Position numbers and translations under genes: made by a program | The notes under the pieces: generated by a model | Databases searched by the model: none | Told to the model about the DNA's origin: nothing | What the model saw: only the letters and a program-made list of their open reading frames with translations | In this document: piece after piece, positions 3,107 to 43,140 of the stretch | Layout: each line of letters starts with the position of its first letter | How positions within the stretch are numbered: position 1 is the stretch's first letter | Origin: Candidatus Levyibacteriota bacterium | GTDB lineage: Bacteria; Patescibacteriota; Microgenomatia; Levybacterales; UBA12049 | Length of the DNA: 64,000 nt | Assembly: GCA_027459745.1 (NCBI GenBank) | Contig: DAIDHL010000003.1 | Coordinates: forward strand, 1,125 to 65,124 | Reading direction: 5' to 3'

Positions 3107-4159
3107 ATGTTCCAGCCTAAATTCAGCCTGACTTTTCCAATGCTTAATACCCTAAGCACCATTGAGCGGTTATATGGACATTTACTAGGAGAAAAGCTCA
3201 TACCCTCACTGGCGCTAAGGTTAAACCAGGAAAATCAGGTTTTAGCTACCCATTACTCCACCAGTATTGAGGGTAATCCGCTTTCCCCTCAGGACGTGAC
3301 AAATGTAGTACTGGGGGATAAGATACCAACCACTAAATCAGAAAAAGAAGTTAAAAACTATTTTCATACCCTTAATCATTTATTCGTATTAGCCAAAGAA
3401 GATCCTCATATCACAACTGATTTAACTTTAACCATACATAAACAACTTATGGAAGGATTGCTTGATCATGGAGTGGGGGAGTTTCGTGATGGATCGGTTT
3501 TTGTAGGACATAAAGACGGAGTCGAATACGTTGTGAAACATAATCCCCCTTTTCATACAAGCAAGGAAATTAGTCACGCGTTAGAAGAAATTTATGAGTG
3601 GGCTAATAAGAAAGACGAGCTACATCCTCTACTCAAAGCTGGTATTTTGCATCATCAATTTGCCTATATCCATCCTTTTTTTGATGGTAACGGACGTAGT
3701 GCCCGCTTATTAACAACCTTTTATCTTCTTATACAACACTATGAGGTAGTTAAATACTTTATTCTGGATGATTATTATGATATTGACCGTCATCTGTATT
3801 CGGACACTTTACATACGGCAGATAAGGGGGATGAGACAAAGTGGTTGGAATATTTCTTAGAGGGAATTGCTAACTCATTGCAAGGCGCAATATCACGTAT
3901 TGATGAATTGAATAAAGTCAACTTGGAAGAAATAACCGGGGAGAAAAGAGTTTTAGTTTCTCAACGTGAGGAAGAGGCTCTACAAATAGTGATTGATAAA
4001 AAAGCAGTTAAATCCTCAGACCTAGAACAAGCTTTTGATGTTACCCGTCAACAAGCTCACGCATTACTTTCTTCGTTGGTTAAAAAAGGGTTGTTAACCA
4101 AATACGGAAAAACTAAAACAAGTTATTACCGATTACAAGGCAGTCCTGAGGTGAAATAA
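3107..4159 (+). CDS. Fic family protein (class II, auto-inhibited) with C-terminal wHTH-like region
   Basis: Fic motif HPFFDGNGRSARLL. The N-terminal inhibitory motif STSIEGN matches (S/T)xxIE(G/N). Confidence 0.8.
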   Translation: MFQPKFSLTFPMLNTLSTIERLYGHLLGEKLIPSLALRLNQENQVLATHYSTSIEGNPLSPQDVTNVVLGDKIPTTKSEKEVKNYFHTLNHLFVLAKEDPHITTDLTLTIHKQLMEGLLDHGVGEFRDGSVFVGHKDGVEYVVKHNPPFHTSKEISHALEEIYEWANKKDELHPLLKAGILHHQFAYIHPFFDGNGRSARLLTTFYLLIQHYEVVKYFILDDYYDIDRHLYSDTLHTADKGDETKWLEYFLEGIANSLQGAISRIDELNKVNLEEITGEKRVLVSQREEEALQIVIDKKAVKSSDLEQAFDVTRQQAHALLSSLVKKGLLTKYGKTKTSYYRLQGSPEVK

Positions 4160-28628: not shown

Positions 28629-29312
28629 ATGGCTTCCAAGAAGAACAAACATCAAGTAAAGAATCCTCTGGAATTGGAAGAAAGCTCTTCTGATTCGATA
28701 TTACGCGGTTTAAGTGAAGAAACTAAACAATGGAGTAAGGGTTTTCTAGAACAGATTATAGGCTCAGAGGAAATTACTTCTCATCCCAAATCGGGTGATT
28801 TACAACCAGGTCAAGAATTGCACCTTGGCAAGAGTAAAGCTACCATCAAACAAGAAAATTCATGGACTGACTTTTTGTTTGGCAATGGCGGCGAACAATC
28901 AGCCAAAGAAGCAAAACATAAGAAAGAAGCTGCTCCTGGGATGGATTATCATCGCGAAATTGCGACTGTAGAGTCACGCATGCATGCCAAAGAAAAAGGA
29001 GAGCTCAAGCAAGCTATTCAGGAAATCCAGATGGAACTACAAAAGTTAGTTGCATCATCCAGTATGCTGCAAGTTGAATTTAGCCAAGTCAGTATGTCAC
29101 AAGCACCTAAAGACCCGGGTAAATACCACGTTAATTTCTTCCAGTGGGTATTGACTGTTATTAGACAGGCTCGCATGAAAGTAGAAGATGCTGGCGCATG
29201 GCAGGCAGCTATCAAAGGTAAAAAGAAAAACGGATTCTGGCAAAGAGCCAAAAACGAAGGTACAACTTTCTTATTGCATCATGACCGCAATGTGGCCACA
29301 CAGGCTGGATAA
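28629..29312 (+). CDS. Hypothetical protein
   Basis: 227-aa ORF with no recognisable motif. Confidence 0.4.
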   Translation: MASKKNKHQVKNPLELEESSSDSILRGLSEETKQWSKGFLEQIIGSEEITSHPKSGDLQPGQELHLGKSKATIKQENSWTDFLFGNGGEQSAKEAKHKKEAAPGMDYHREIATVESRMHAKEKGELKQAIQEIQMELQKLVASSSMLQVEFSQVSMSQAPKDPGKYHVNFFQWVLTVIRQARMKVEDAGAWQAAIKGKKKNGFWQRAKNEGTTFLLHHDRNVATQAG

Positions 29313-29326
29313 AATTAATTTAGTTC

Positions 29327-29356
29327 TTGCATTTTCAAATAAAATACGACTATAAT
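29327..29356 (+). promoter_or_regulatory. Promoter TTGCAT-18-TATAAT driving the ilv leader (leaderless)
   Basis: TATAAT at 29351-56 lies 6 nt before the leader ATG at 29363. Confidence 0.45.
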
Positions 29357-29362
29357 AATCAC

Positions 29363-29410
29363 ATGATAAGAAATCAAAACGTTATTATTGCTCTCATTAT
29401 TACCCGTTAA
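29363..29410 (+). CDS. ilv leader peptide MIRNQNVIIALIITR (15 aa; Ile/Val/Leu-rich)
   Basis: The run of cognate codons is GTT ATT ATT GCT CTC ATT ATT, and the stop sits 31 nt before an intrinsic terminator. Confidence 0.55.
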   Translation: MIRNQNVIIALIITR

Positions 29411-29441
29411 CGCGGTGTATTTGTGTTGAGCAAAACAAGTA

Positions 29442-29463
29442 CCCCGCCAAGCGGGGTTTTTTT
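29442..29463 (+). terminator. Attenuator terminator CCCCGC-CAA-GCGGGG + T7
   Basis: Perfect 6-bp GC stem followed by seven T residues, 12 nt upstream of the ilvB ATG. Confidence 0.6.
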
Positions 29464-29474
29464 ATGACAAAAAT

Positions 29475-31166
29475 ATGAAAAGCAAAAATATAAGCGGAGC
29501 CAAAGCAGTAATGGAATCTTTAATAGCCGAGCAGGTTGATACGATCTTTGGTTATCCAGGGGGAGCGATCATGCCAATTTATGATGCTTTATATGATTAT
29601 AAAGATCAGATCAAACATATTTTGGTCAGACATGAACAAGGTGCTGCCCATGCAGCTGAAGGATATGCCAGAACTAGTGGCAAAACAGGCGTATGCTTTG
29701 CCACATCTGGACCTGGAGCAACTAATCTCATTACCGGAATTGCCGACGCCATGCTCGATTCAGTTCCACTCGTGTGTATAACTGGTCAAGTTGCATCTCA
29801 TCTGGTAGGCACTGATGCGTTTCAGGAAGTTGACGTCATTGGTATAACCTCTTCTATAACCAAATGGAACTACCAAATTACCAAAAGGGAAGAAATTGAC
29901 TCGATCATCCACCAGGCCTTTAACATAGCTCAAAGCGGAAGGCCTGGACCGGTAGTAATCGACGTTACTAAAGATGCGCAGCTTAATTTGTTCTCCTATC
30001 AGGAAAAAAGGACAAAAAAATTTAATCACTCTAAAAAACGATTAAATAAAAGCACTTTGGACTCAATTGCGAGATTGATAAATCAAGCAGAGCGACCATT
30101 AATTCTGGCGGGTCATGGAATTTTAATTGCTAACGCGGAAACTGAACTAAAAAAATTTGTCGAAAAAACAGATATCCCTGTTGCTTGTACTTTACATGGT
30201 TTAACATCTATACCAGTTGATCATCCGAATTATGTGGGTATGCTGGGTATGCACGGCAATTATGCGCCCAATGTCTTAACCAATCAGGCAGATGTGATTA
30301 TAGCTATTGGCATGCGCTTTGATGATAGAGTCACTAGTGATACCCAAACTTACGCCAAACAAGCCAAAATTATACATATAGACATCGATGCCAGCGAATT
30401 TGATAAAAATGTAAAAACTAAACTAACTCTCCAAGCAGATGCTAAAGAGGCTCTAACAAACTTATTTCCGCTGATAAATAAAGCACAACACAGTGCTTGG
30501 TTGGAAAAATTTCGTCAACTTTATGACCAAGAGCACCTACAAGTTATAACTTCTGATATCAATCGACCGGATACCCAAACTGTCTCCATGGCTGAGGTTA
30601 TTCACCAACTGTCAGAAATTACCCAAGGTAATGCTATTATTGTGGCTGACGTGGGGCAGCATCAAATGGTCACTGCTAGATATTTTAAGCATACATACCC
30701 TAATCACTACTTAACATCAGGCGGTGCTGGCACAATGGGTTTTGCTTTACCGGCAGCAATAGGCGCGAAAGTAGCCAATCCTGACAAAGAAGTTATTGCA
30801 GTCATCGGAGATGGAAGTTTTCAAATGACACTACAGGAATTGGGAACGATTATGCAAGAAAATATTCCGGTAAAAATTATTATTCTTAACAATCATTACC
30901 TGGGTATGGTACGTCAGTGGCAGGAGTTATTCTTCACCAAACGTTATTCTTTTGTAAATATTGACAGTCCCGATTTCGTTGCTCTGGCGAAATCATATGG
31001 CATCATGGGCAATACAGTAATACACAAGTCTGATCTGAAAAAGTCACTGCAACTTCTATGGAAAAGTAAACAAGCTTATTTGCTAGAGGTAAAAGTGGTC
31101 AAAGAAACCAATGTTTTTCCTATGATACCAACAGGAGCAGCTGTCGATGAAATGCGTCTTGAATAA
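29475..31166 (+). CDS. ilvB: Acetolactate synthase large subunit (TPP enzyme)
   Basis: 563 aa with a TPP-binding fold. GDGSFQMTLQELGT near the C-terminus matches the GDG(x)24-27N region. Confidence 0.85.
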   Translation: MKSKNISGAKAVMESLIAEQVDTIFGYPGGAIMPIYDALYDYKDQIKHILVRHEQGAAHAAEGYARTSGKTGVCFATSGPGATNLITGIADAMLDSVPLVCITGQVASHLVGTDAFQEVDVIGITSSITKWNYQITKREEIDSIIHQAFNIAQSGRPGPVVIDVTKDAQLNLFSYQEKRTKKFNHSKKRLNKSTLDSIARLINQAERPLILAGHGILIANAETELKKFVEKTDIPVACTLHGLTSIPVDHPNYVGMLGMHGNYAPNVLTNQADVIIAIGMRFDDRVTSDTQTYAKQAKIIHIDIDASEFDKNVKTKLTLQADAKEALTNLFPLINKAQHSAWLEKFRQLYDQEHLQVITSDINRPDTQTVSMAEVIHQLSEITQGNAIIVADVGQHQMVTARYFKHTYPNHYLTSGGAGTMGFALPAAIGAKVANPDKEVIAVIGDGSFQMTLQELGTIMQENIPVKIIILNNHYLGMVRQWQELFFTKRYSFVNIDSPDFVALAKSYGIMGNTVIHKSDLKKSLQLLWKSKQAYLLEVKVVKETNVFPMIPTGAAVDEMRLE

Positions 31167-31169
31167 TCT

Positions 31170-31409
31170 ATGGAGAAAAAAATATTTACTATTACTATTG
31201 TTTCCCAAAATACACCTGGCGTTTTATACCGCATAGCGGGTATGTTTTTACGACGAAAAATTAATATCGAGTCATTGCATGTTAAAGCAACCTCACTTAA
31301 AACAAAAGCTAAATTTATTATAAAAGTCACTTCAAAGTTGGATATCGTAAAGGTTATGTGCAAACAAATGGAGAAAATCGTGGAAGTAGAGGAGGTTGTT
31401 TTGAAATGA
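31170..31409 (+). CDS. ilvN: Acetolactate synthase small subunit, minimal ACT-domain form
   Basis: IVSQNTPGVLYRIAGMFLRRKINIESLHV is an ACT domain. The ATGA overlap with ilvA suggests translational coupling. Confidence 0.65.
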   Translation: MEKKIFTITIVSQNTPGVLYRIAGMFLRRKINIESLHVKATSLKTKAKFIIKVTSKLDIVKVMCKQMEKIVEVEEVVLK

Positions 31410-32650
31410 CAATAACTATTCAACAAATCGACCAGGCAGCGAAAACTTTGGAGAAAGTTGTACAGCAAACACCATTACTGTATTCGAAACGTTTGTCTAA
31501 GCAGTATAAAGCCAATATCTACCTCAAGCGTGAAGACTTACAGGAGGTGCGCTCGTTTAAAATTCGCGGTGCATATAATAAGATCGCATCATTAACTGCT
31601 GATGAGAAGAGACGAGGAGTTGTTTGTGCCAGTGCAGGAAATCATGCGCAAGGTGTGGCTCTGGGATGTTTTCTGCAGAAAATAAAAGGGGTTATTTTTA
31701 TGCCCCGCGTTACGCCAAATCAAAAAATTGAAAAAGTAAAACAATTTGGCCAGAAGTATGTGGAGGTCAAATTGGTAGGCCAGACTTTTGATGATGCAAG
31801 TGCAGAATCGAAAATTTACACCCAACAGAATAATATGGTATACGTTCATCCTTTCGATGATCCTCTGGTTATTGCCGGACAGGGAACTGTAGGTAAAGAA
31901 ATTTTCGAACAATCCGCAGGTAATGTAGACATAGTTATTTCTCCTATCGGTGGGGGTGGTTTGACCTCGGGGATTTCCAGCTATCTAAAACAGAAAAATT
32001 CAAAAATAACAATCATCGGAACCGAACCCCAGGGGGCAGCCGGCATGCACTCTTCAGTAAGTAATGGCTCAGTGACATCATTGGAAACAATTGATACTTT
32101 TGTGGATGGCGCAGCAGTAAAAACTGTCGGGAATATGACTTTTGCCATATGCCAAAAATACGTTTCTAAAATCGTGACTATTCCTGAAGGTATGGACTGT
32201 ACGACCATGATAGAACTTTATCAAAAAGACGGCATCATCGCTGAACCCGCAGGAGCGTTAAGTATCTCGACTTTAGAAAAAATTAAAGATGAAATAAGAG
32301 GAAAAACTGTGGTTTGTGTGCTAAGTGGGGGAAACAATGATTTACTGCGCTATCCAGAAATTTTAGAACGAAGTCTGATCTATCTAGGCAGGAAGCATTA
32401 TTTCATCATCGAATTTGCCCAAAAGCCAGGTCAGTTACGTCAATTTGTAGACCAGGCGCTTGGCCCTACTGATGATATTGTGAGGTTTGAATATATTAAA
32501 AAAACAAACAAGGAAAAAGGTCCAGCTCTAGTGGGAGTAGAGTTACAAAACGCTAAAGATTACAATTCATTACTCAAACGTATGGATAAGATTGGTTTAC
32601 AATATAGAATTTTACAACAGGATGATTTACTGTATCAATATTTGGTATAA
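31406..32650 (+). CDS. ilvA: Threonine ammonia-lyase (biosynthetic-type, one C-terminal regulatory domain)
   Basis: PLP motif FKIRGAYNK. GNHAQGVA. A Gly-rich GGGG loop. SD GGAGG 10 nt upstream of the ATG at 31406. Confidence 0.8.
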   Translation: MTITIQQIDQAAKTLEKVVQQTPLLYSKRLSKQYKANIYLKREDLQEVRSFKIRGAYNKIASLTADEKRRGVVCASAGNHAQGVALGCFLQKIKGVIFMPRVTPNQKIEKVKQFGQKYVEVKLVGQTFDDASAESKIYTQQNNMVYVHPFDDPLVIAGQGTVGKEIFEQSAGNVDIVISPIGGGGLTSGISSYLKQKNSKITIIGTEPQGAAGMHSSVSNGSVTSLETIDTFVDGAAVKTVGNMTFAICQKYVSKIVTIPEGMDCTTMIELYQKDGIIAEPAGALSISTLEKIKDEIRGKTVVCVLSGGNNDLLRYPEILERSLIYLGRKHYFIIEFAQKPGQLRQFVDQALGPTDDIVRFEYIKKTNKEKGPALVGVELQNAKDYNSLLKRMDKIGLQYRILQQDDLLYQYLV

Positions 32651-32657
32651 ATAAGAT

Positions 32658-33038
32658 ATGCAACAGATTCAAACCAAGAAAGCACCTCAAGCCATTGGCC
32701 CTTACTCACAAGCTATCATGTTGGAAAATGGAACCATATATTGCTCAGGACAAATAGGGTTGAACCCACAAACCGGAGAATTAGCTTCGGGAATAGAGGC
32801 ACAAACCAAACAAATTATGCAAAATATTCAAGCTCTACTGGAAGAGTTAGGTTATTCACTGGAAAATATCTGCAAAACCACTATCTTCTTGACTGATATG
32901 AACGACTTTACAAAAGTGAATGAAATTTATGGCTCATTTTTCTCTACACACAAACCTGCCCGGTCAACCGTAGGGGTGGCTCAGTTACCAAAACATGCAT
33001 TAGTAGAAATCGAAGTGATTGCCTATAATAAAATTTGA
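32658..33038 (+). CDS. ridA: RidA (YjgF/TdcF) enamine/imine deaminase
   Basis: 126 aa. It begins APQAIGPYSQA and ends ARSTVGVAQLPKHALVEIEVIA. Confidence 0.75.
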   Translation: MQQIQTKKAPQAIGPYSQAIMLENGTIYCSGQIGLNPQTGELASGIEAQTKQIMQNIQALLEELGYSLENICKTTIFLTDMNDFTKVNEIYGSFFSTHKPARSTVGVAQLPKHALVEIEVIAYNKI

Positions 33039-33064
33039 CAGTATGGTATATATTTTTGTAAAAT
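33035..33064 (+). promoter_or_regulatory. Promoter TTGACA-18-TAAAAT driving second leader peptide (leaderless)
   Basis: TTGACA at 33035-40. The -10 element ends 7 nt before the leader ATG at 33072. Confidence 0.4.
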
Positions 33065-33071
33065 ACAAAAT

Positions 33072-33122
33072 ATGATAAATAGAACTCAAGTTGTTGTTGC
33101 TCTCCTTCTTATCCGTTCTTAG
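33072..33122 (+). CDS. Branched-chain-type leader peptide MINRTQVVVALLLIRS (16 aa)
   Basis: Codon run GTT GTT GTT GCT CTC CTT CTT ATC. The stop TAG overlaps a GCGGG element. Confidence 0.5.
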   Translation: MINRTQVVVALLLIRS

Positions 33123-33160
33123 CGGGTTAGATTTGGTGCAATAAACACACAAAATCATAT

Positions 33161-33181
33161 CCCGCGAAAGCGGGTTTTTTT
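33161..33181 (+). terminator. Attenuator terminator CCCGC-GAAA-GCGGG + T7
   Basis: GNRA-type loop. An upstream GCGGG copy at 33122-26 could form an antiterminator with CCCGC. Confidence 0.55.
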
Positions 33182-33826
33182 ATGGTAAATTTAGCAGAGA
33201 TAGAACCATCAATAAGATCATTTTCTACACCTTCAATAACTGAAGGAGGATTAGTAGTACCTCAAGCATTACCTATTCATGCTAGAGATAGATCGTTCTC
33301 AGATTTACGCAGAGTCCGATTTATAGACGCTGTAGATGAGGATCGTGGATACCCAATCTTAAAATACCTACCTCATTCTTCACAGCCAGTAATGTTTGGG
33401 ATACCACGAGGAGATCAACCAATCTATGGTGGAATATTGCGTAACATGGATCGTCATAATGTTGCATTATATGCACTAAACAAACAAATGGGTGGAGCAG
33501 AAAGAATAAGAACATATCTACGAGGATATTATGAAGTTAATAGACAAAAAAATGACCATTCGCGTCACATGGTTATCTTTGAAATGCATCCAGATGAGAA
33601 AGGCAAATTTGATCCAAAGGACTTACAGCCGGAAGAGTGGGGTTTTTTTGACCCTAACCAATATTTAACACAACAAAATATTCAAAGTATTATGTCTGCT
33701 GCAGCTGCTGATACATTAAGAGTTCAATATAGTAGAATATCTACGACAGCGTTTGAACAAAAAGCTCTTCAAGCCGAAAGAGCAGCTCGCAAGAAACATT
33801 CTTATTATGATCATCAAAGTGACTAA
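33182..33826 (+). CDS. Hypothetical protein (start uncertain; the ATG immediately follows the terminator T-run)
   Basis: 214-aa ORF with no recognisable motif. Confidence 0.4.
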   Translation: MVNLAEIEPSIRSFSTPSITEGGLVVPQALPIHARDRSFSDLRRVRFIDAVDEDRGYPILKYLPHSSQPVMFGIPRGDQPIYGGILRNMDRHNVALYALNKQMGGAERIRTYLRGYYEVNRQKNDHSRHMVIFEMHPDEKGKFDPKDLQPEEWGFFDPNQYLTQQNIQSIMSAAAADTLRVQYSRISTTAFEQKALQAERAARKKHSYYDHQSD

Positions 33827-38672: not shown

Positions 38673-39671
38673 ATGGATATACCTCCACTATTTCAAATCA
38701 CCAACAACATGTTAACCACTATTGCCCAAATAGAAGGATTGCGATCCTCATTGGAGATTACTCGAGTTCCTGATCTTATATTATCCCATTTACGTTCTGA
38801 AAGTTTGCTCAAAAGTTCTGTTTTTTCAGCTCAGATCGAAGGCAATACATTATCCGTTCAAGATATTCAAAATAGAGAATCAGAAAAAAATGAAACTGAT
38901 TACCAGCATCAAGAAGTTGAAAATATTATTAATGCTTTATCACTAATGCGAGAAAATGAACTTCCGCAAATTATTGATTTGGACTTCATATTAACATTAC
39001 ATAAACAAGTCATGCATAACTTGGTACATTCATCTCAAGCCGGAAAATTAAGACGGGAACCTAGTGCTATTTTTGATCAATCAGGCAATGTCGTTTATAT
39101 GACACCTCCTCCTTCACAATTAGAACCGCTGCTTTCAGATCTACTGCGTTTGATTAATCAATCTGATAATATCTTTCCTCTGATTAAAATTGCGCTTGTG
39201 CATCTCTGTTTTGAAAAAATTCATCCTTTCTTAGATGGCAATGGTAGGGTAGGTAGATTGATTATTCAAGCTTTGCTCGCCAAACATAATTATCATTTTC
39301 AGTGGTTACTTTCCATTGAAGAAGGCTTACAAGAGAAAAAACAAACCTATTATGTTTTGCTTGATAGAAATGATGCCAGTGAATTTATCGAATTCTTTTT
39401 GTCTGTGATTTTAGATGAAGCGGAAAAGTTAAAAGCTAATTTAAGTAATATTAACAATCCACAACCGCAAGATTTTCTTTTACCTCGGAGGAAAGAGATT
39501 TTAAATATTATTACAGAGCAAAATATAGTGTCTTTTGATCAATTACACCGTAGATTTTTAAAAATTCCTGATCGTACTCTGCGTTATGATCTACAACAGT
39601 TAGAAAAGGCTGGCTTTATACAAAAAGTCGGCACGACCAGAGGAGCAATGTATCAAGTTATCAAACATTAA
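38673..39671 (+). CDS. Fic family protein (class II) with C-terminal wHTH
   Basis: HPFLDGNGRVGRLI Fic motif. The N-terminal inhibitory motif is SAQIEGN. Confidence 0.8.
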   Translation: MDIPPLFQITNNMLTTIAQIEGLRSSLEITRVPDLILSHLRSESLLKSSVFSAQIEGNTLSVQDIQNRESEKNETDYQHQEVENIINALSLMRENELPQIIDLDFILTLHKQVMHNLVHSSQAGKLRREPSAIFDQSGNVVYMTPPPSQLEPLLSDLLRLINQSDNIFPLIKIALVHLCFEKIHPFLDGNGRVGRLIIQALLAKHNYHFQWLLSIEEGLQEKKQTYYVLLDRNDASEFIEFFLSVILDEAEKLKANLSNINNPQPQDFLLPRRKEILNIITEQNIVSFDQLHRRFLKIPDRTLRYDLQQLEKAGFIQKVGTTRGAMYQVIKH

Positions 39672-39740
39672 GTATTATTTGACAAAGCTATTATGTTTTG
39701 TTAGCATAAACCAACTATGTGCAAACTACTTAATATTTTT

Positions 39741-39767
39741 ATGACCGGTACAACTACCTCTGTTTAG
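39741..39767 (+). CDS. Thr-rich leader peptide MTGTTTSV (8 aa)
   Basis: ATG ACC GGT ACA ACT ACC TCT GTT TAG. The stop overlaps GCGGGG (39767-72). A TTGACA hexamer lies at 39678. Confidence 0.45.
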   Translation: MTGTTTSV

Positions 39768-39794
39768 CGGGGTTGTATTGATGTGCAATAGATA

Positions 39795-39816
39795 CCCCGC
39801 AAAGCGGGGTTTTTTT
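39795..39816 (+). terminator. Attenuator terminator CCCCGC-AAA-GCGGGG + T7
   Basis: Perfect 6-bp stem and a T7 run. The upstream GCGGGG copy supports an antiterminator alternative. Confidence 0.55.
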
Positions 39817-39847
39817 ATGGTTTGATACCTAAAGAAAGGAGGAAAAA

Positions 39848-40087
39848 ATGGCAAAAGAAATAAAACTTGATGATTTTCATTTTGTCTCACCAGATGTGAG
39901 AGGACAGATTGTACCTGATTTTTATGAAAGACTAATTATCAGACAACCTGATCCACGTTTCAATCTTGATAGCCAAAATTATTTTGGAGCTCAAAGAAAA
40001 GATAAATTACCCAAAGCTTGTTTGGCAAAAGATAGGGCAAGAATCGATTCTATAAGAGCTCAACTAAAAATAGTTGCTAGACAATAA
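39848..40087 (+). CDS. Hypothetical small protein (strong SD)
   Basis: AAAGGAGGAAAAAATG. 79 aa. Confidence 0.45.
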   Translation: MAKEIKLDDFHFVSPDVRGQIVPDFYERLIIRQPDPRFNLDSQNYFGAQRKDKLPKACLAKDRARIDSIRAQLKIVARQ

Positions 40088-42653: not shown

Positions 42654-43004
42654 ATGGCAAGAGTAAAACGCGGGATGGTCTCCCGAAGAAAACATAATAA
42701 ATTACTTAAATTAGCTAAAGGCTATACGGGTACTAAGGGTCGTTTGGTCAGAACAGCAAAGCAAGCTGTTTTGCATGCAGGAGCTTATGCCTTCCATGGC
42801 CGCAAACTTCGCAAAAGAGATTTCCGTTCATTATGGATCACTCGCATCAGTGGTGCAGTCAAACAACAAGGTCTTTCTTATAGTGTTTTTATGAATAAGT
42901 TACAAAAGTCTAATATCGTTCTTGACCGCAAGATTTTGAGTGATTTGGTCGTCAATGATCCAGCTGCCTTCAAACATATAGTTGACACAGTTAAAGCAAA
43001 ATAA
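42654..43004 (+). CDS. rplT: 50S ribosomal protein L20
   Basis: MARVKRGMVSRRKHNKLLKLAKGYTG... is a canonical L20. Confidence 0.9.
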   Translation: MARVKRGMVSRRKHNKLLKLAKGYTGTKGRLVRTAKQAVLHAGAYAFHGRKLRKRDFRSLWITRISGAVKQQGLSYSVFMNKLQKSNIVLDRKILSDLVVNDPAAFKHIVDTVKAK

Positions 43005-43010
43005 TATTAT
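42982..43010 (+). promoter_or_regulatory. Promoter TTGACA-17-TATTAT inside the rplT 3' end, driving a leaderless pheM-like leader
   Basis: The -10 ends at 43010; the leader ATG is at 43017. Confidence 0.45.
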
Positions 43011-43016
43011 AAATGC

Positions 43017-43088
43017 ATGAACTCACGTATTAACAATTCTTTTTGGTTTTACTTTACTTCCCCAACCGGGAGGCTTGTTAGTGCTTAA
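43017..43088 (+). CDS. Aromatic/Phe-rich leader peptide MNSRINNSFWFYFTSPTGRLVSA (pheM-like)
   Basis: FWFYF codon run. It contains GGGAGG (43068-73), which matches the terminator 3' half. Its position after rplT is the same as E. coli pheM. Confidence 0.5.
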   Translation: MNSRINNSFWFYFTSPTGRLVSA

Positions 43089-43117
43089 GCACTAACATTG
43101 GAGTAATCCAACTTAGA

Positions 43118-43140
43118 CCTCCCGAAAGGGAGGTTTTTTT
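43118..43140 (+). terminator. Attenuator terminator CCTCCC-GAAA-GGGAGG + T7
   Basis: Perfect 6-bp stem, GNRA loop and seven T residues. Confidence 0.55.

Follow-up and report, generated by a model that had tools for sequence, protein, structure and literature searches.

The stretch analysed here, 64,000 nucleotides from a Candidatus Levyibacteriota bacterium (contig DAIDHL010000003.1 of assembly GCA_027459745.1; hereafter the window, with a GC content of 36.8%), carries an ilvB-ilvN-ilvA-ridA operon, and our subject is the short leader region in front of ilvB, in which a small open reading frame (ORF) rich in isoleucine, leucine and valine (ILV) codons is followed by an intrinsic terminator. 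Features lie on the plus strand unless otherwise stated. The region begins with a -35 hexamer read from the sequence, TTGCAT (29327..29332), an 18-nt spacer and a -10 hexamer, TATAAT (29351..29356), which a gap of 6 nt (aatcac) separates from an ATG at 29363. This ATG opens the leader ORF (29363..29410), whose 15 codons, MIRNQNVIIALIITR, include five Ile, one Val and one Leu and have their regulatory stretch at codons 7-13 (V I I A L I I). The terminator, ACCCCGC-CAA-GCGGGGU with U7 (29441..29463), was found by the terminator scan; its hairpin CCCCGC-CAA-GCGGGG (29442-29456) is extended by an A-U pair to a 7-bp stem with six G-C pairs, the T7 occupies 29457-29463, and the minus strand of the hairpin has no T-run. 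Directly 3' of the U-tract lies a mini-ORF, ATG ACA AAA ATA TGA (29464..29478; MTKI and a stop), and the ATG of ilvB follows the T-run by 11 nt, a gap that leaves ilvB no room for a promoter of its own, such that every ilvB transcript must pass the terminator. The whole switch takes up about 100 bases, half of them coding, and as folded below the leader measures 112 nt. A first-pass annotation of the same DNA had described the 15-codon ORF with its ILV content, the perfect hairpin with its T7 and the TATAAT ending 6 nt before the leader ATG, all of which we recovered at these positions; its distance of 12 nt from the T-run to ilvB was one too many, and the antiterminator and the mini-ORF are additions of the present work.

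Comparison with the ilv leaders of related genomes, which that annotation had proposed as a check, was carried out on relatives taken from IlvB protein matches, and five of their loci carry the same element. These are L081 (IlvB 77% identical, leader MLRNQNIIVALIITR), L082 (78%, MLCKQTIIALIITR) and L083 (68%, MHLTISQSILVLIILR), all in front of ilvB-ilvN-ilvA-ridA, and L093 (65%, MSKNLLLIALVILTR) and L094 (65%, MNRNLLLLIVDLLIEER), both in front of ilvB-ilvN-ilvC. All six loci, the window included (IlvB 65-78% identical), have an ILV-rich ORF of 14-17 codons together with a promoter, a terminator and an antiterminator. The differences in leader length amount to whole codons, the substitutions are exchanges among I, V and L or are synonymous (CTC to CTT; TAA to TAG), and the stop codon varies between TAA, TAG and TGA. 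The leaders are Ile-rich at the loci that contain ilvA, whose enzyme is the one committed to isoleucine (window, L081, L082 and L083), and Leu-rich at the ilvB-ilvN-ilvC loci (L093 and L094); leader codons that track operon content are what would be predicted of a codon-sensing device.

The leader RNA has two alternative predicted pairings. In one of them, a 1:2 hairpin (29388..29433), an anti-antiterminator and possibly a pause hairpin, joins leader codons 9-15 to the RNA that follows the stop codon through the pairings UUGCUC/GAGCAA, CAU/GUG and UACCCGU/GCGG-GUA; this hairpin together with the terminator is the minimum-free-energy fold of the free window RNA, and the hairpin is also present in the centroid fold. 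In the other, obtained by constraint folding, an antiterminator (29403..29455) pairs GCGG-UGUAUUUGU (29412-29424) with ACAAGUAC-CCGC (29435-29447), to which the full-length fold adds the pairing of CCCGUU (29403-29408) with AGCGGG (29450-29455). The 5' strand of the antiterminator (GCGGUGU; strand segment GCGGUGUA, 29412-29419) begins 1 nt past the leader stop codon, where ribosome-mediated attenuation needs it. The 112-nt leader is predicted to fold at -30.8 kcal/mol, compared with -19.2 +/- 3.4 kcal/mol for dinucleotide shuffles (z = -3.4), and none of 200 shuffles was as good.

Translating ribosomes were modelled with a footprint that reaches 18 nt upstream and 12 nt downstream, measured from the first base of the codon in the A site, and in the co-transcriptional model the transcript was cut before the 3' arm of the terminator and then folded under this ribosome mask. 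The 5' arm ACCCCGC was found to pair with GCGGUGU only while one of codons 6-13 (N V I I A L I I) occupied the A site. With the ribosome at codons 2-5 the arm remains unpaired and the 1:2 hairpin holds the partner strand, and with the ribosome from codon 14 to the stop it is unpaired again, the partner strand being covered by the ribosome; this on/off pattern recurs in orthologues and paralogues. As a control, the stretch left free between ribosome and 5' arm was shuffled 1000 times per test, and an equally good antiterminator arose in 3/1000 and 4/1000 shuffles for the window, in 0-13/1000 in eight further tests and in 55/1000 for L083. Moreover, attenuators of the clade with differing terminator arms (CCCCGC, CCCGCC and CCUCCC) each hold a strand complementary to their own arm at the leader stop codon or just ahead of it, as does a more distant Daviesbacteria locus with the arm UCUCCCU, and we regard this matching of arm and complement as apparent covariation at the level of design.

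From these elements, their conservation and the alternative pairings obtained in silico we infer where transcription starts, that the leader is translated, that termination occurs and that isoleucine is what the switch responds to, and we propose, with a probability of roughly 85%, that the region is a ribosome-mediated (leader-peptide) transcription attenuator coupling ilvB-ilvN-ilvA-ridA mainly to the supply of charged tRNA-Ile. The first transcribed base would be the A of the leader ATG (29363) or a neighbour of it, and the leader would then probably be translated as a leaderless mRNA. Without a ribosome, or with a ribosome on codons 2-5, codons 9-15 and the segment after the stop would form the 1:2 hairpin, the antiterminator strand would be sequestered and the terminator (29441-29463) would form; a ribosome at the last codons or the stop would cover the antiterminator strand, again with the terminator as the outcome. 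When Ile-tRNA, and to a lesser extent Val- or Leu-tRNA, is scarce, a stall in codons 6-13 would melt the 1:2 hairpin and leave GCGGUGUAUUUGU free to pair with the emerging 5' arm of the terminator, and the polymerase would continue into ilvB. On read-through RNA from the upstream operon, the leader AUG would be internal and without a Shine-Dalgarno (SD) sequence, and is expected to go untranslated, which would lead to the 1:2 hairpin and to termination; should such RNA indeed stay untranslated, the attenuator would also insulate ilv from its upstream neighbour genes. The ilv leader peptide and attenuator proposed by the first-pass annotation have their elements in place, both in the window and in its relatives.

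Several results weigh against this proposal. The 1:2 hairpin is part of the predicted minimum-free-energy fold in L082 and in each of the three copies of the second leader described below; however, the free-RNA minimum of L081 and L083 is the antiterminated fold, so that in these two relatives it must be the order of folding, and not thermodynamics, that keeps the switch off by default. At equilibrium, with the full-length RNA modelled, the terminator is lost only for stalls at codons 6-10, and stalls at Ile12 and Ile13 remove it in the co-transcriptional model only. Covariation could not be demonstrated at the level of the alignment: RNAalifold on a MAFFT alignment of nine attenuators returned three invariant terminator pairs only, which makes alignment covariation uninformative, the G-C helices hardly vary, and per-sequence constraint folding was used instead. 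A metagenome scan with the RNA-only pattern TTTGTNNNGAGCAAA...CCCGC...GCGGG gave seven matches, none of them an ilv leader, which is about the number expected by chance as estimated by hand. The genes ilvC, ilvD and ilvE were not found among the annotated ORFs of the window, about one quarter of the ORFs of at least 150 aa (mainly at 48.6-64 kb) lying outside the annotation. Finally, the gap from the -10 box to the leader ATG is 12 nt in L093, so strict leaderlessness is not universal.

The leaderless start deserves to be weighed separately. At the usual distance from TATAAT, the A of the leader ATG (29363) is a plausible +1, and a transcript beginning there would have no room for an SD sequence. 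The -10 boxes of the orthologues (TATAAT, CATAAT, TACAAT and TAAGAT) end 6-7 nt from the leader ATG, with gaps of 6, 6, 6, 7 and 6 nt in five of the six; the sequence of the gap itself is not conserved, and the same 6-7 nt are found in all three copies of the paralogous second leader. The -35 keeps TTGC at the same position (TTGCTT in L081, TTGCAA in L082 and L083) while the spacer sequence diverges. TTGCAT-18-TATAAT is missing from the list of the consensus promoter scan because TTGCAT agrees with TTGACA at only three of six positions. Across the window, among 46 gene starts that we picked within the 64 kb, 15 show the leaderless geometry (TAnnnT ending 5-9 nt upstream, most often 6), compared with 8.9% of all ATG triplets, and perfect TTGACA-17-TATAAT promoters end 6 nt before the ATG of full-length genes at 3107 and 25004. 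Gene starts with this geometry include those at 3107, 8142, 11377 (minus strand), 16391, 25004, 35462 and 51253. The predicted pairing energy with the anti-SD has a median of +0.3 kcal/mol at the window gene starts, so that most of them appear to lack an SD sequence, strong ones being found mainly at internal cistrons such as ilvA. It looks as if leaderless initiation were the normal mode for the first genes of operons in this genome, and the ilvB leader peptide is probably translated as a leaderless mRNA.

It is unlikely, in our estimate, that the attenuator is real but not leaderless, with a transcript that starts further upstream by read-through from the trigger factor-DUF5660 genes, or a few nucleotides before the ATG, and with SD-independent internal initiation. 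Such read-through transcripts probably exist, given that no terminator lies between the end of the DUF5660 gene (29312) and the leader, and the 12-nt gap of L093, the poor -35 hexamer and the general scarcity of SD sequences in the window are all compatible with this alternative; the 6-7 nt kept in five of six orthologues and in the paralogues over an unconserved sequence, together with the full-length genes at 3107 and 25004 that share the geometry behind perfect promoters, speak for the leaderless start instead. The leaderless leader of the first-pass annotation is in this way made more plausible by its geometry, by the gaps of the orthologues, by about one third of the window gene starts and by a precedent in Corynebacterium glutamicum (see below), with L093 as the exception and the start itself a prediction. 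Two other starts were considered and rejected: a TTG-initiated frame at 29388-29429, whose length is not conserved in L081 as judged by eye, and an in-frame upstream TTG at 29327, which belongs to the -35 hexamer.

A second property of these elements concerns the structural gene, as an ATG follows the U-tract without any spacer in 11 of the 12 attenuators of the clade. In L082, L083 and L093 it is the start codon of ilvB. At the other three ilvB loci it begins a mini-ORF of 2-4 codons (MTKI in the window, MRKI in L081 and ML in L094), the stop codon of which shares bases with the ATG of ilvB (ATGA in the window). In the Bacteroidota and other loci of our genome scan the first long ORF lies 6-85 nt past the U-tract, where one was found. 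The 3' arm of the terminator, GCGGGG, is predicted to pair at -7.4 kcal/mol with a standard anti-SD, which may not be that of the host, at a spacer of 7 nt; GGGAGG takes its place in L094, in the aromatic leader of the window and in L083's second leader, and the arms sit 6-8 nt before the ATG. All this would suit a hairpin acting mainly as a translation control, in which the stem would keep ribosomes from entering at the ATG after the U-tract until translation of the leader opened it. We hold this to be improbable, as a G-C stem of 6-7 bp with U6-8 is a canonical intrinsic terminator, although both modes are compatible, and as 17% of random ATGs reach -5 kcal/mol with an anti-SD that, again, may not be the one used by the host.

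Within the transcription attenuator that we prefer, a tentative extension, which we would sooner doubt than accept, is that the same RNA switch also exposes or hides a ribosome entry site; as an alternative, the U-tract might act as an S1-type enhancer. Equally speculative is that the attenuators of this Patescibacteria lineage could be one fused module, made of a leaderless leader with a 5'-AUG, a terminator and a start codon directly after the U-tract. If so, only transcripts from the leader's own promoter would be both translated and antiterminated, and untranslated read-through from upstream would be terminated by the same hairpin. The G-rich 3' arm (GCGGGG or GGGAGG) and the U-tract would then be the ribosome entry site of the structural gene, with transcription and translation both gated, and the module would be native to the lineage, maybe recruited by duplication onto a horizontally acquired ilvBN-ilvA-ridA block.

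There is very little to recommend the hairpin as a plain terminator of the upstream trigger factor-DUF5660 operon, with the short ORF as a chance product of AT-rich DNA. The hairpin does lie about 130 nt past the upstream gene, and Ile codons are common at 37% GC; but the 11 nt between the U-tract and ilvB cannot accommodate a promoter, the ORF stays in frame across six loci with ILV-preserving changes, an antiterminator that beats 99.6% of shuffles abuts its stop codon, and the leader codons follow the content of the operon. In other phyla T-boxes are common regulators of ilv and aminoacyl-tRNA synthetase genes, but a ligand-, tRNA- or protein-binding attenuator (T-box, riboswitch or TRAP-like) in place of ribosome sensing was rejected as scarcely credible, since no Rfam family reached its gathering score, about 100 nt are too short for a T-box and the conserved in-frame ILV ORF would be left unexplained. 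In Rfam searches of the leader region with E up to 10, only weak, terminator-driven matches were obtained (Arrc14, 22 bits against 99), the leader families remaining below their cut-offs (Trp_leader, 16.8 against 41; Phe_leader, 16.9 against 55), and the whole window at gathering thresholds returned only tRNAs.

The operon behind the leader is compact. Its first gene, ilvB (29475..31166), encodes an acetolactate synthase large subunit of 563 aa (TIGR00118, 718 bits). It is followed by ilvN (31170..31409), for a small subunit of 79 aa with a single ACT domain (TIGR00119, 50.2 bits with a cut-off of 56.9); the small-subunit models match the ACT domain only, all below their cut-offs, and the orthologues carry a precomputed Pfam ACT_AHAS_ss. 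This IlvN is without the C-terminal ALS_ss_C domain, is of equal length in L081, L083 and L093, and resembles the small subunits, likewise short, of enterobacterial AHAS I and II. The start of ilvA (31406..32650; threonine ammonia-lyase, 414 aa; NF006390, 608 bits) is preceded by GAGGAGG and overlaps the stop of ilvN as ATGA (31406-31409), and ridA (32658..33038) encodes a Rid-family enamine/imine deaminase of 126 aa (TIGR00004, 173 bits). The gene order, the overlap and ridA as the deaminase gene agree with what had been read from the letters of the window, and apart from IlvN, which falls below its cut-off, the NCBIfam matches identify the products.

The neighbourhood of the operon bears on its origin. 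The gene just upstream of the leader, ending at 29312, carries DUF5660, and the trigger factor is short (282 aa). The closest matches of the window PheS are from a Patescibacteria group bacterium (79, 72 and 68%) and from Candidatus Levybacteria (68%), with a few similarly scoring matches labelled as other phyla; on these grounds the host is probably a member of the Patescibacteria. In one relative, L096 (on a contig of 751 kb), whose PheS is 76% identical to that of the window, the trigger factor and DUF5660 genes are followed by an ILV-type attenuator, a 62-aa ORF, a tRNA, a 75-aa ORF, thrS-infC-rpmI-rplT, a Phe-type leader and pheST; no ilv genes were present within the 21-kb locus retrieved, and between DUF5660 and thrS this relative lacks the ilvBN-ilvA-ridA block together with the further genes of the window as far as the Fic gene (38673-39671). 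The attenuator of L096 (5860-6214 of its locus; MTVVNKFIIRLINHF, CCCGC-GAAA-GCGGG and U8) stands after the DUF5660 gene and before the 62-aa ORF. In a scan of GTDB species representatives with IlvB, the best 80 loci were at most 61% identical, mostly from Bacteroidota and with no close relative among them, and they served as an outgroup. A look-up of exact matches to the IlvB of the window retrieved no record. The absence of the block in L096 and the Bacteroidota-like IlvB (about 60%) suggest that the ilvBN-ilvA-ridA block of the window is an insertion acquired horizontally. The attenuator scaffold, for its part, appears to be resident in the lineage and older than the ilv insertion, because L096, without ilv genes in its 21-kb locus, has an ILV-type attenuator at the same place.

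Further attenuators were recognized in the window. A paralogous Val/Leu attenuator follows ridA (33035..33181), with TTGACA-18-TAAAAT, a gap of 7 nt, the ORF MINRTQVVVALLLIRS and a terminator CCCGC-GAAA-GCGGG with U7. This second leader has a scaffold in common with the ilvB leader, on which II is replaced by VV and II by LL; it scored 85 bits in nhmmer and is conserved in L081 and L082. The DNA core RTTGCTCTYMTTMTTAYCCGTT is common to both leaders, which fits a relation by duplication. The stop codon of ridA lies inside the -35 hexamer of the second leader, whose terminator probably also ends the transcript of the ilv operon. The predicted target of the second leader is a 214-aa ORF that starts right after its U-tract (region 33035-33826); it gave no Pfam or NCBIfam match, searches of 5.8 billion and of 1.84 billion sequences each yielded just one homologue, and its AlphaFold2 model (pLDDT, the predicted local distance difference test, 35) was too poor for a fold search.

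A Thr-type leader (39680-39850) has TTGACA-17-TAGCAT, a gap of 9 nt, the ORF MCKLLNIFMTGTTTSV and the terminator ACCCCGC-AAA-GCGGGGU with U7; its antiterminator strand GCGGGGU overlaps the stop codon, and it stands upstream of a 79-aa ORF and thrS-infC-rpmI-rplT. The nhmmer profile of the ILV attenuators aligned to the entire leader (E = 1e-6). Its terminator looks degenerate by eye in the close relative L097, which makes the function of the leader uncertain. After rplT comes an aromatic leader (42983-43140) with TTGACA-17-TATTAT, a gap of 6 nt, the ORF MNSRINNSFWFYFTSPTGRLVSA and ACCUCCC-GAAA-GGGAGGU with U7, followed by two small unknown ORFs, a class I/II aminotransferase, pheS and pheT. 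The homologous leader of L097 (..VFWFYFYF..) precedes genes for a DAHP-synthase-like protein, a chorismate mutase, a PDH/PDT fusion and an aminotransferase, and then pheST. In L096 the aromatic-type leader directly precedes pheST, a position that resembles that of pheM in Escherichia coli.

The Patescibacteria (candidate phyla radiation, CPR) are mostly uncultured, and their gene regulation is apparently little known; a literature search of incomplete coverage returned no paper that ties them to leader-peptide attenuation or to leaderless mRNAs. Our results suggest that one of their lineages may use the oldest known RNA-based sensor of amino acids in an extremely compact, leaderless form, possibly at several operons of a single window: those of ilv and of an orphan gene, the aromatic/pheST operon and, probably, the thrS operon. 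The two paralogous leaders on either side of the ilv operon could be taken as a natural codon-swap experiment, II to VV and II to LL on one scaffold, and since the promoters are similar to the sigma-70 consensus, E. coli or a cell-free system may suffice for testing the elements, with no need for culturing.

Judged by its sequence, the element has the defining features of the classical ilv, trp and his attenuators and is expected to work like them. The ilvBN (ivbL) and ilvGMEDA (ilvL) leaders of E. coli follow a logic of four segments, in which ILV codons are combined with a 1:2 hairpin, a 2:3 antiterminator and a 3:4 terminator, and the stop codon is placed such that a terminating ribosome masks segment 2; the element of the window was modelled with this same logic. 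The E. coli leaders are SD-led and encode peptides of 32 aa, their leader RNAs are well over 100 nt and the structural gene lies tens of nucleotides downstream.

Elsewhere, the ilv loci of Bacteroidota and other phyla resemble the window in having short ORFs with runs of I, V and L before a terminator, such as MFSNSTNIVNIISTIIIVVVIIIPVPNGGGVLL in Sediminibacterium; in many loci of the genome scan, such ORFs and terminators were found 2-3 kb upstream of ilvB. The Bacteroidota-type leaders are longer, with long homopolymer-like I/V runs and, as judged by eye, no TATAAT-type -10 at 6-7 nt before the ATG, and their nhmmer similarity to the window attenuator is marginal (E = 1e-4 to 0.02). Among the loci retrieved, ILV-rich leader ORFs with terminators precede the ilv operons of many Bacteroidota, some Anaerolineae and further Patescibacteria (L004, L010, L020, L025, L079, L084 and others), and this kind of attenuator is therefore widespread. 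In Candidatus Daviesbacteria, a cluster ilvE-ilvB-ilvN-ilvC-leuA-ilvD is preceded by the leader MINIVMLRKSLILLAVLISQV.

Leaderless small ORFs rich in cysteine codons are known from mycobacteria, where these polycysteine ORFs have been described as acting on operonic expression and not through a canonical intrinsic terminator (bioRxiv 10.1101/834739), and the ilvB1NC leader of Mycobacterium tuberculosis gives a terminated transcript of about 120 nt (PMC13236596). The mycobacterial attenuators share with the window regulatory codons that control a downstream operon; phylum and sequences are different. The closest precedent is IlvL of C. glutamicum, MTIIRLVVVTARRLP: according to one account (PMC11857589, citing Morbach 2000), transcription of ilvBNC starts at the start codon of a 15-aa leader, or 1 nt away from it, and this leader is translated although it lacks a ribosome-binding site. 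As in the window, the ILV-rich leader of 15 codons stands upstream of ilvB, and the mechanism, as proposed for the window, is translation-dependent switching between terminator and antiterminator. The Corynebacterium leader region is 292 nt long, against about 112 nt in the window, and belongs to an ilvBNC operon of a high-GC actinobacterium with a Val-centred leader, whereas the window has ilvBN-ilvA-ridA; no sequence similarity was noticed. The structural start codon of the window abuts the U-tract, unlike that of C. glutamicum ilvBNC. In comparison with these systems, the mechanism looks like an ordinary, textbook one, and what looks unusual is its compactness and the apparent translation of the leader from the first base of the transcript.

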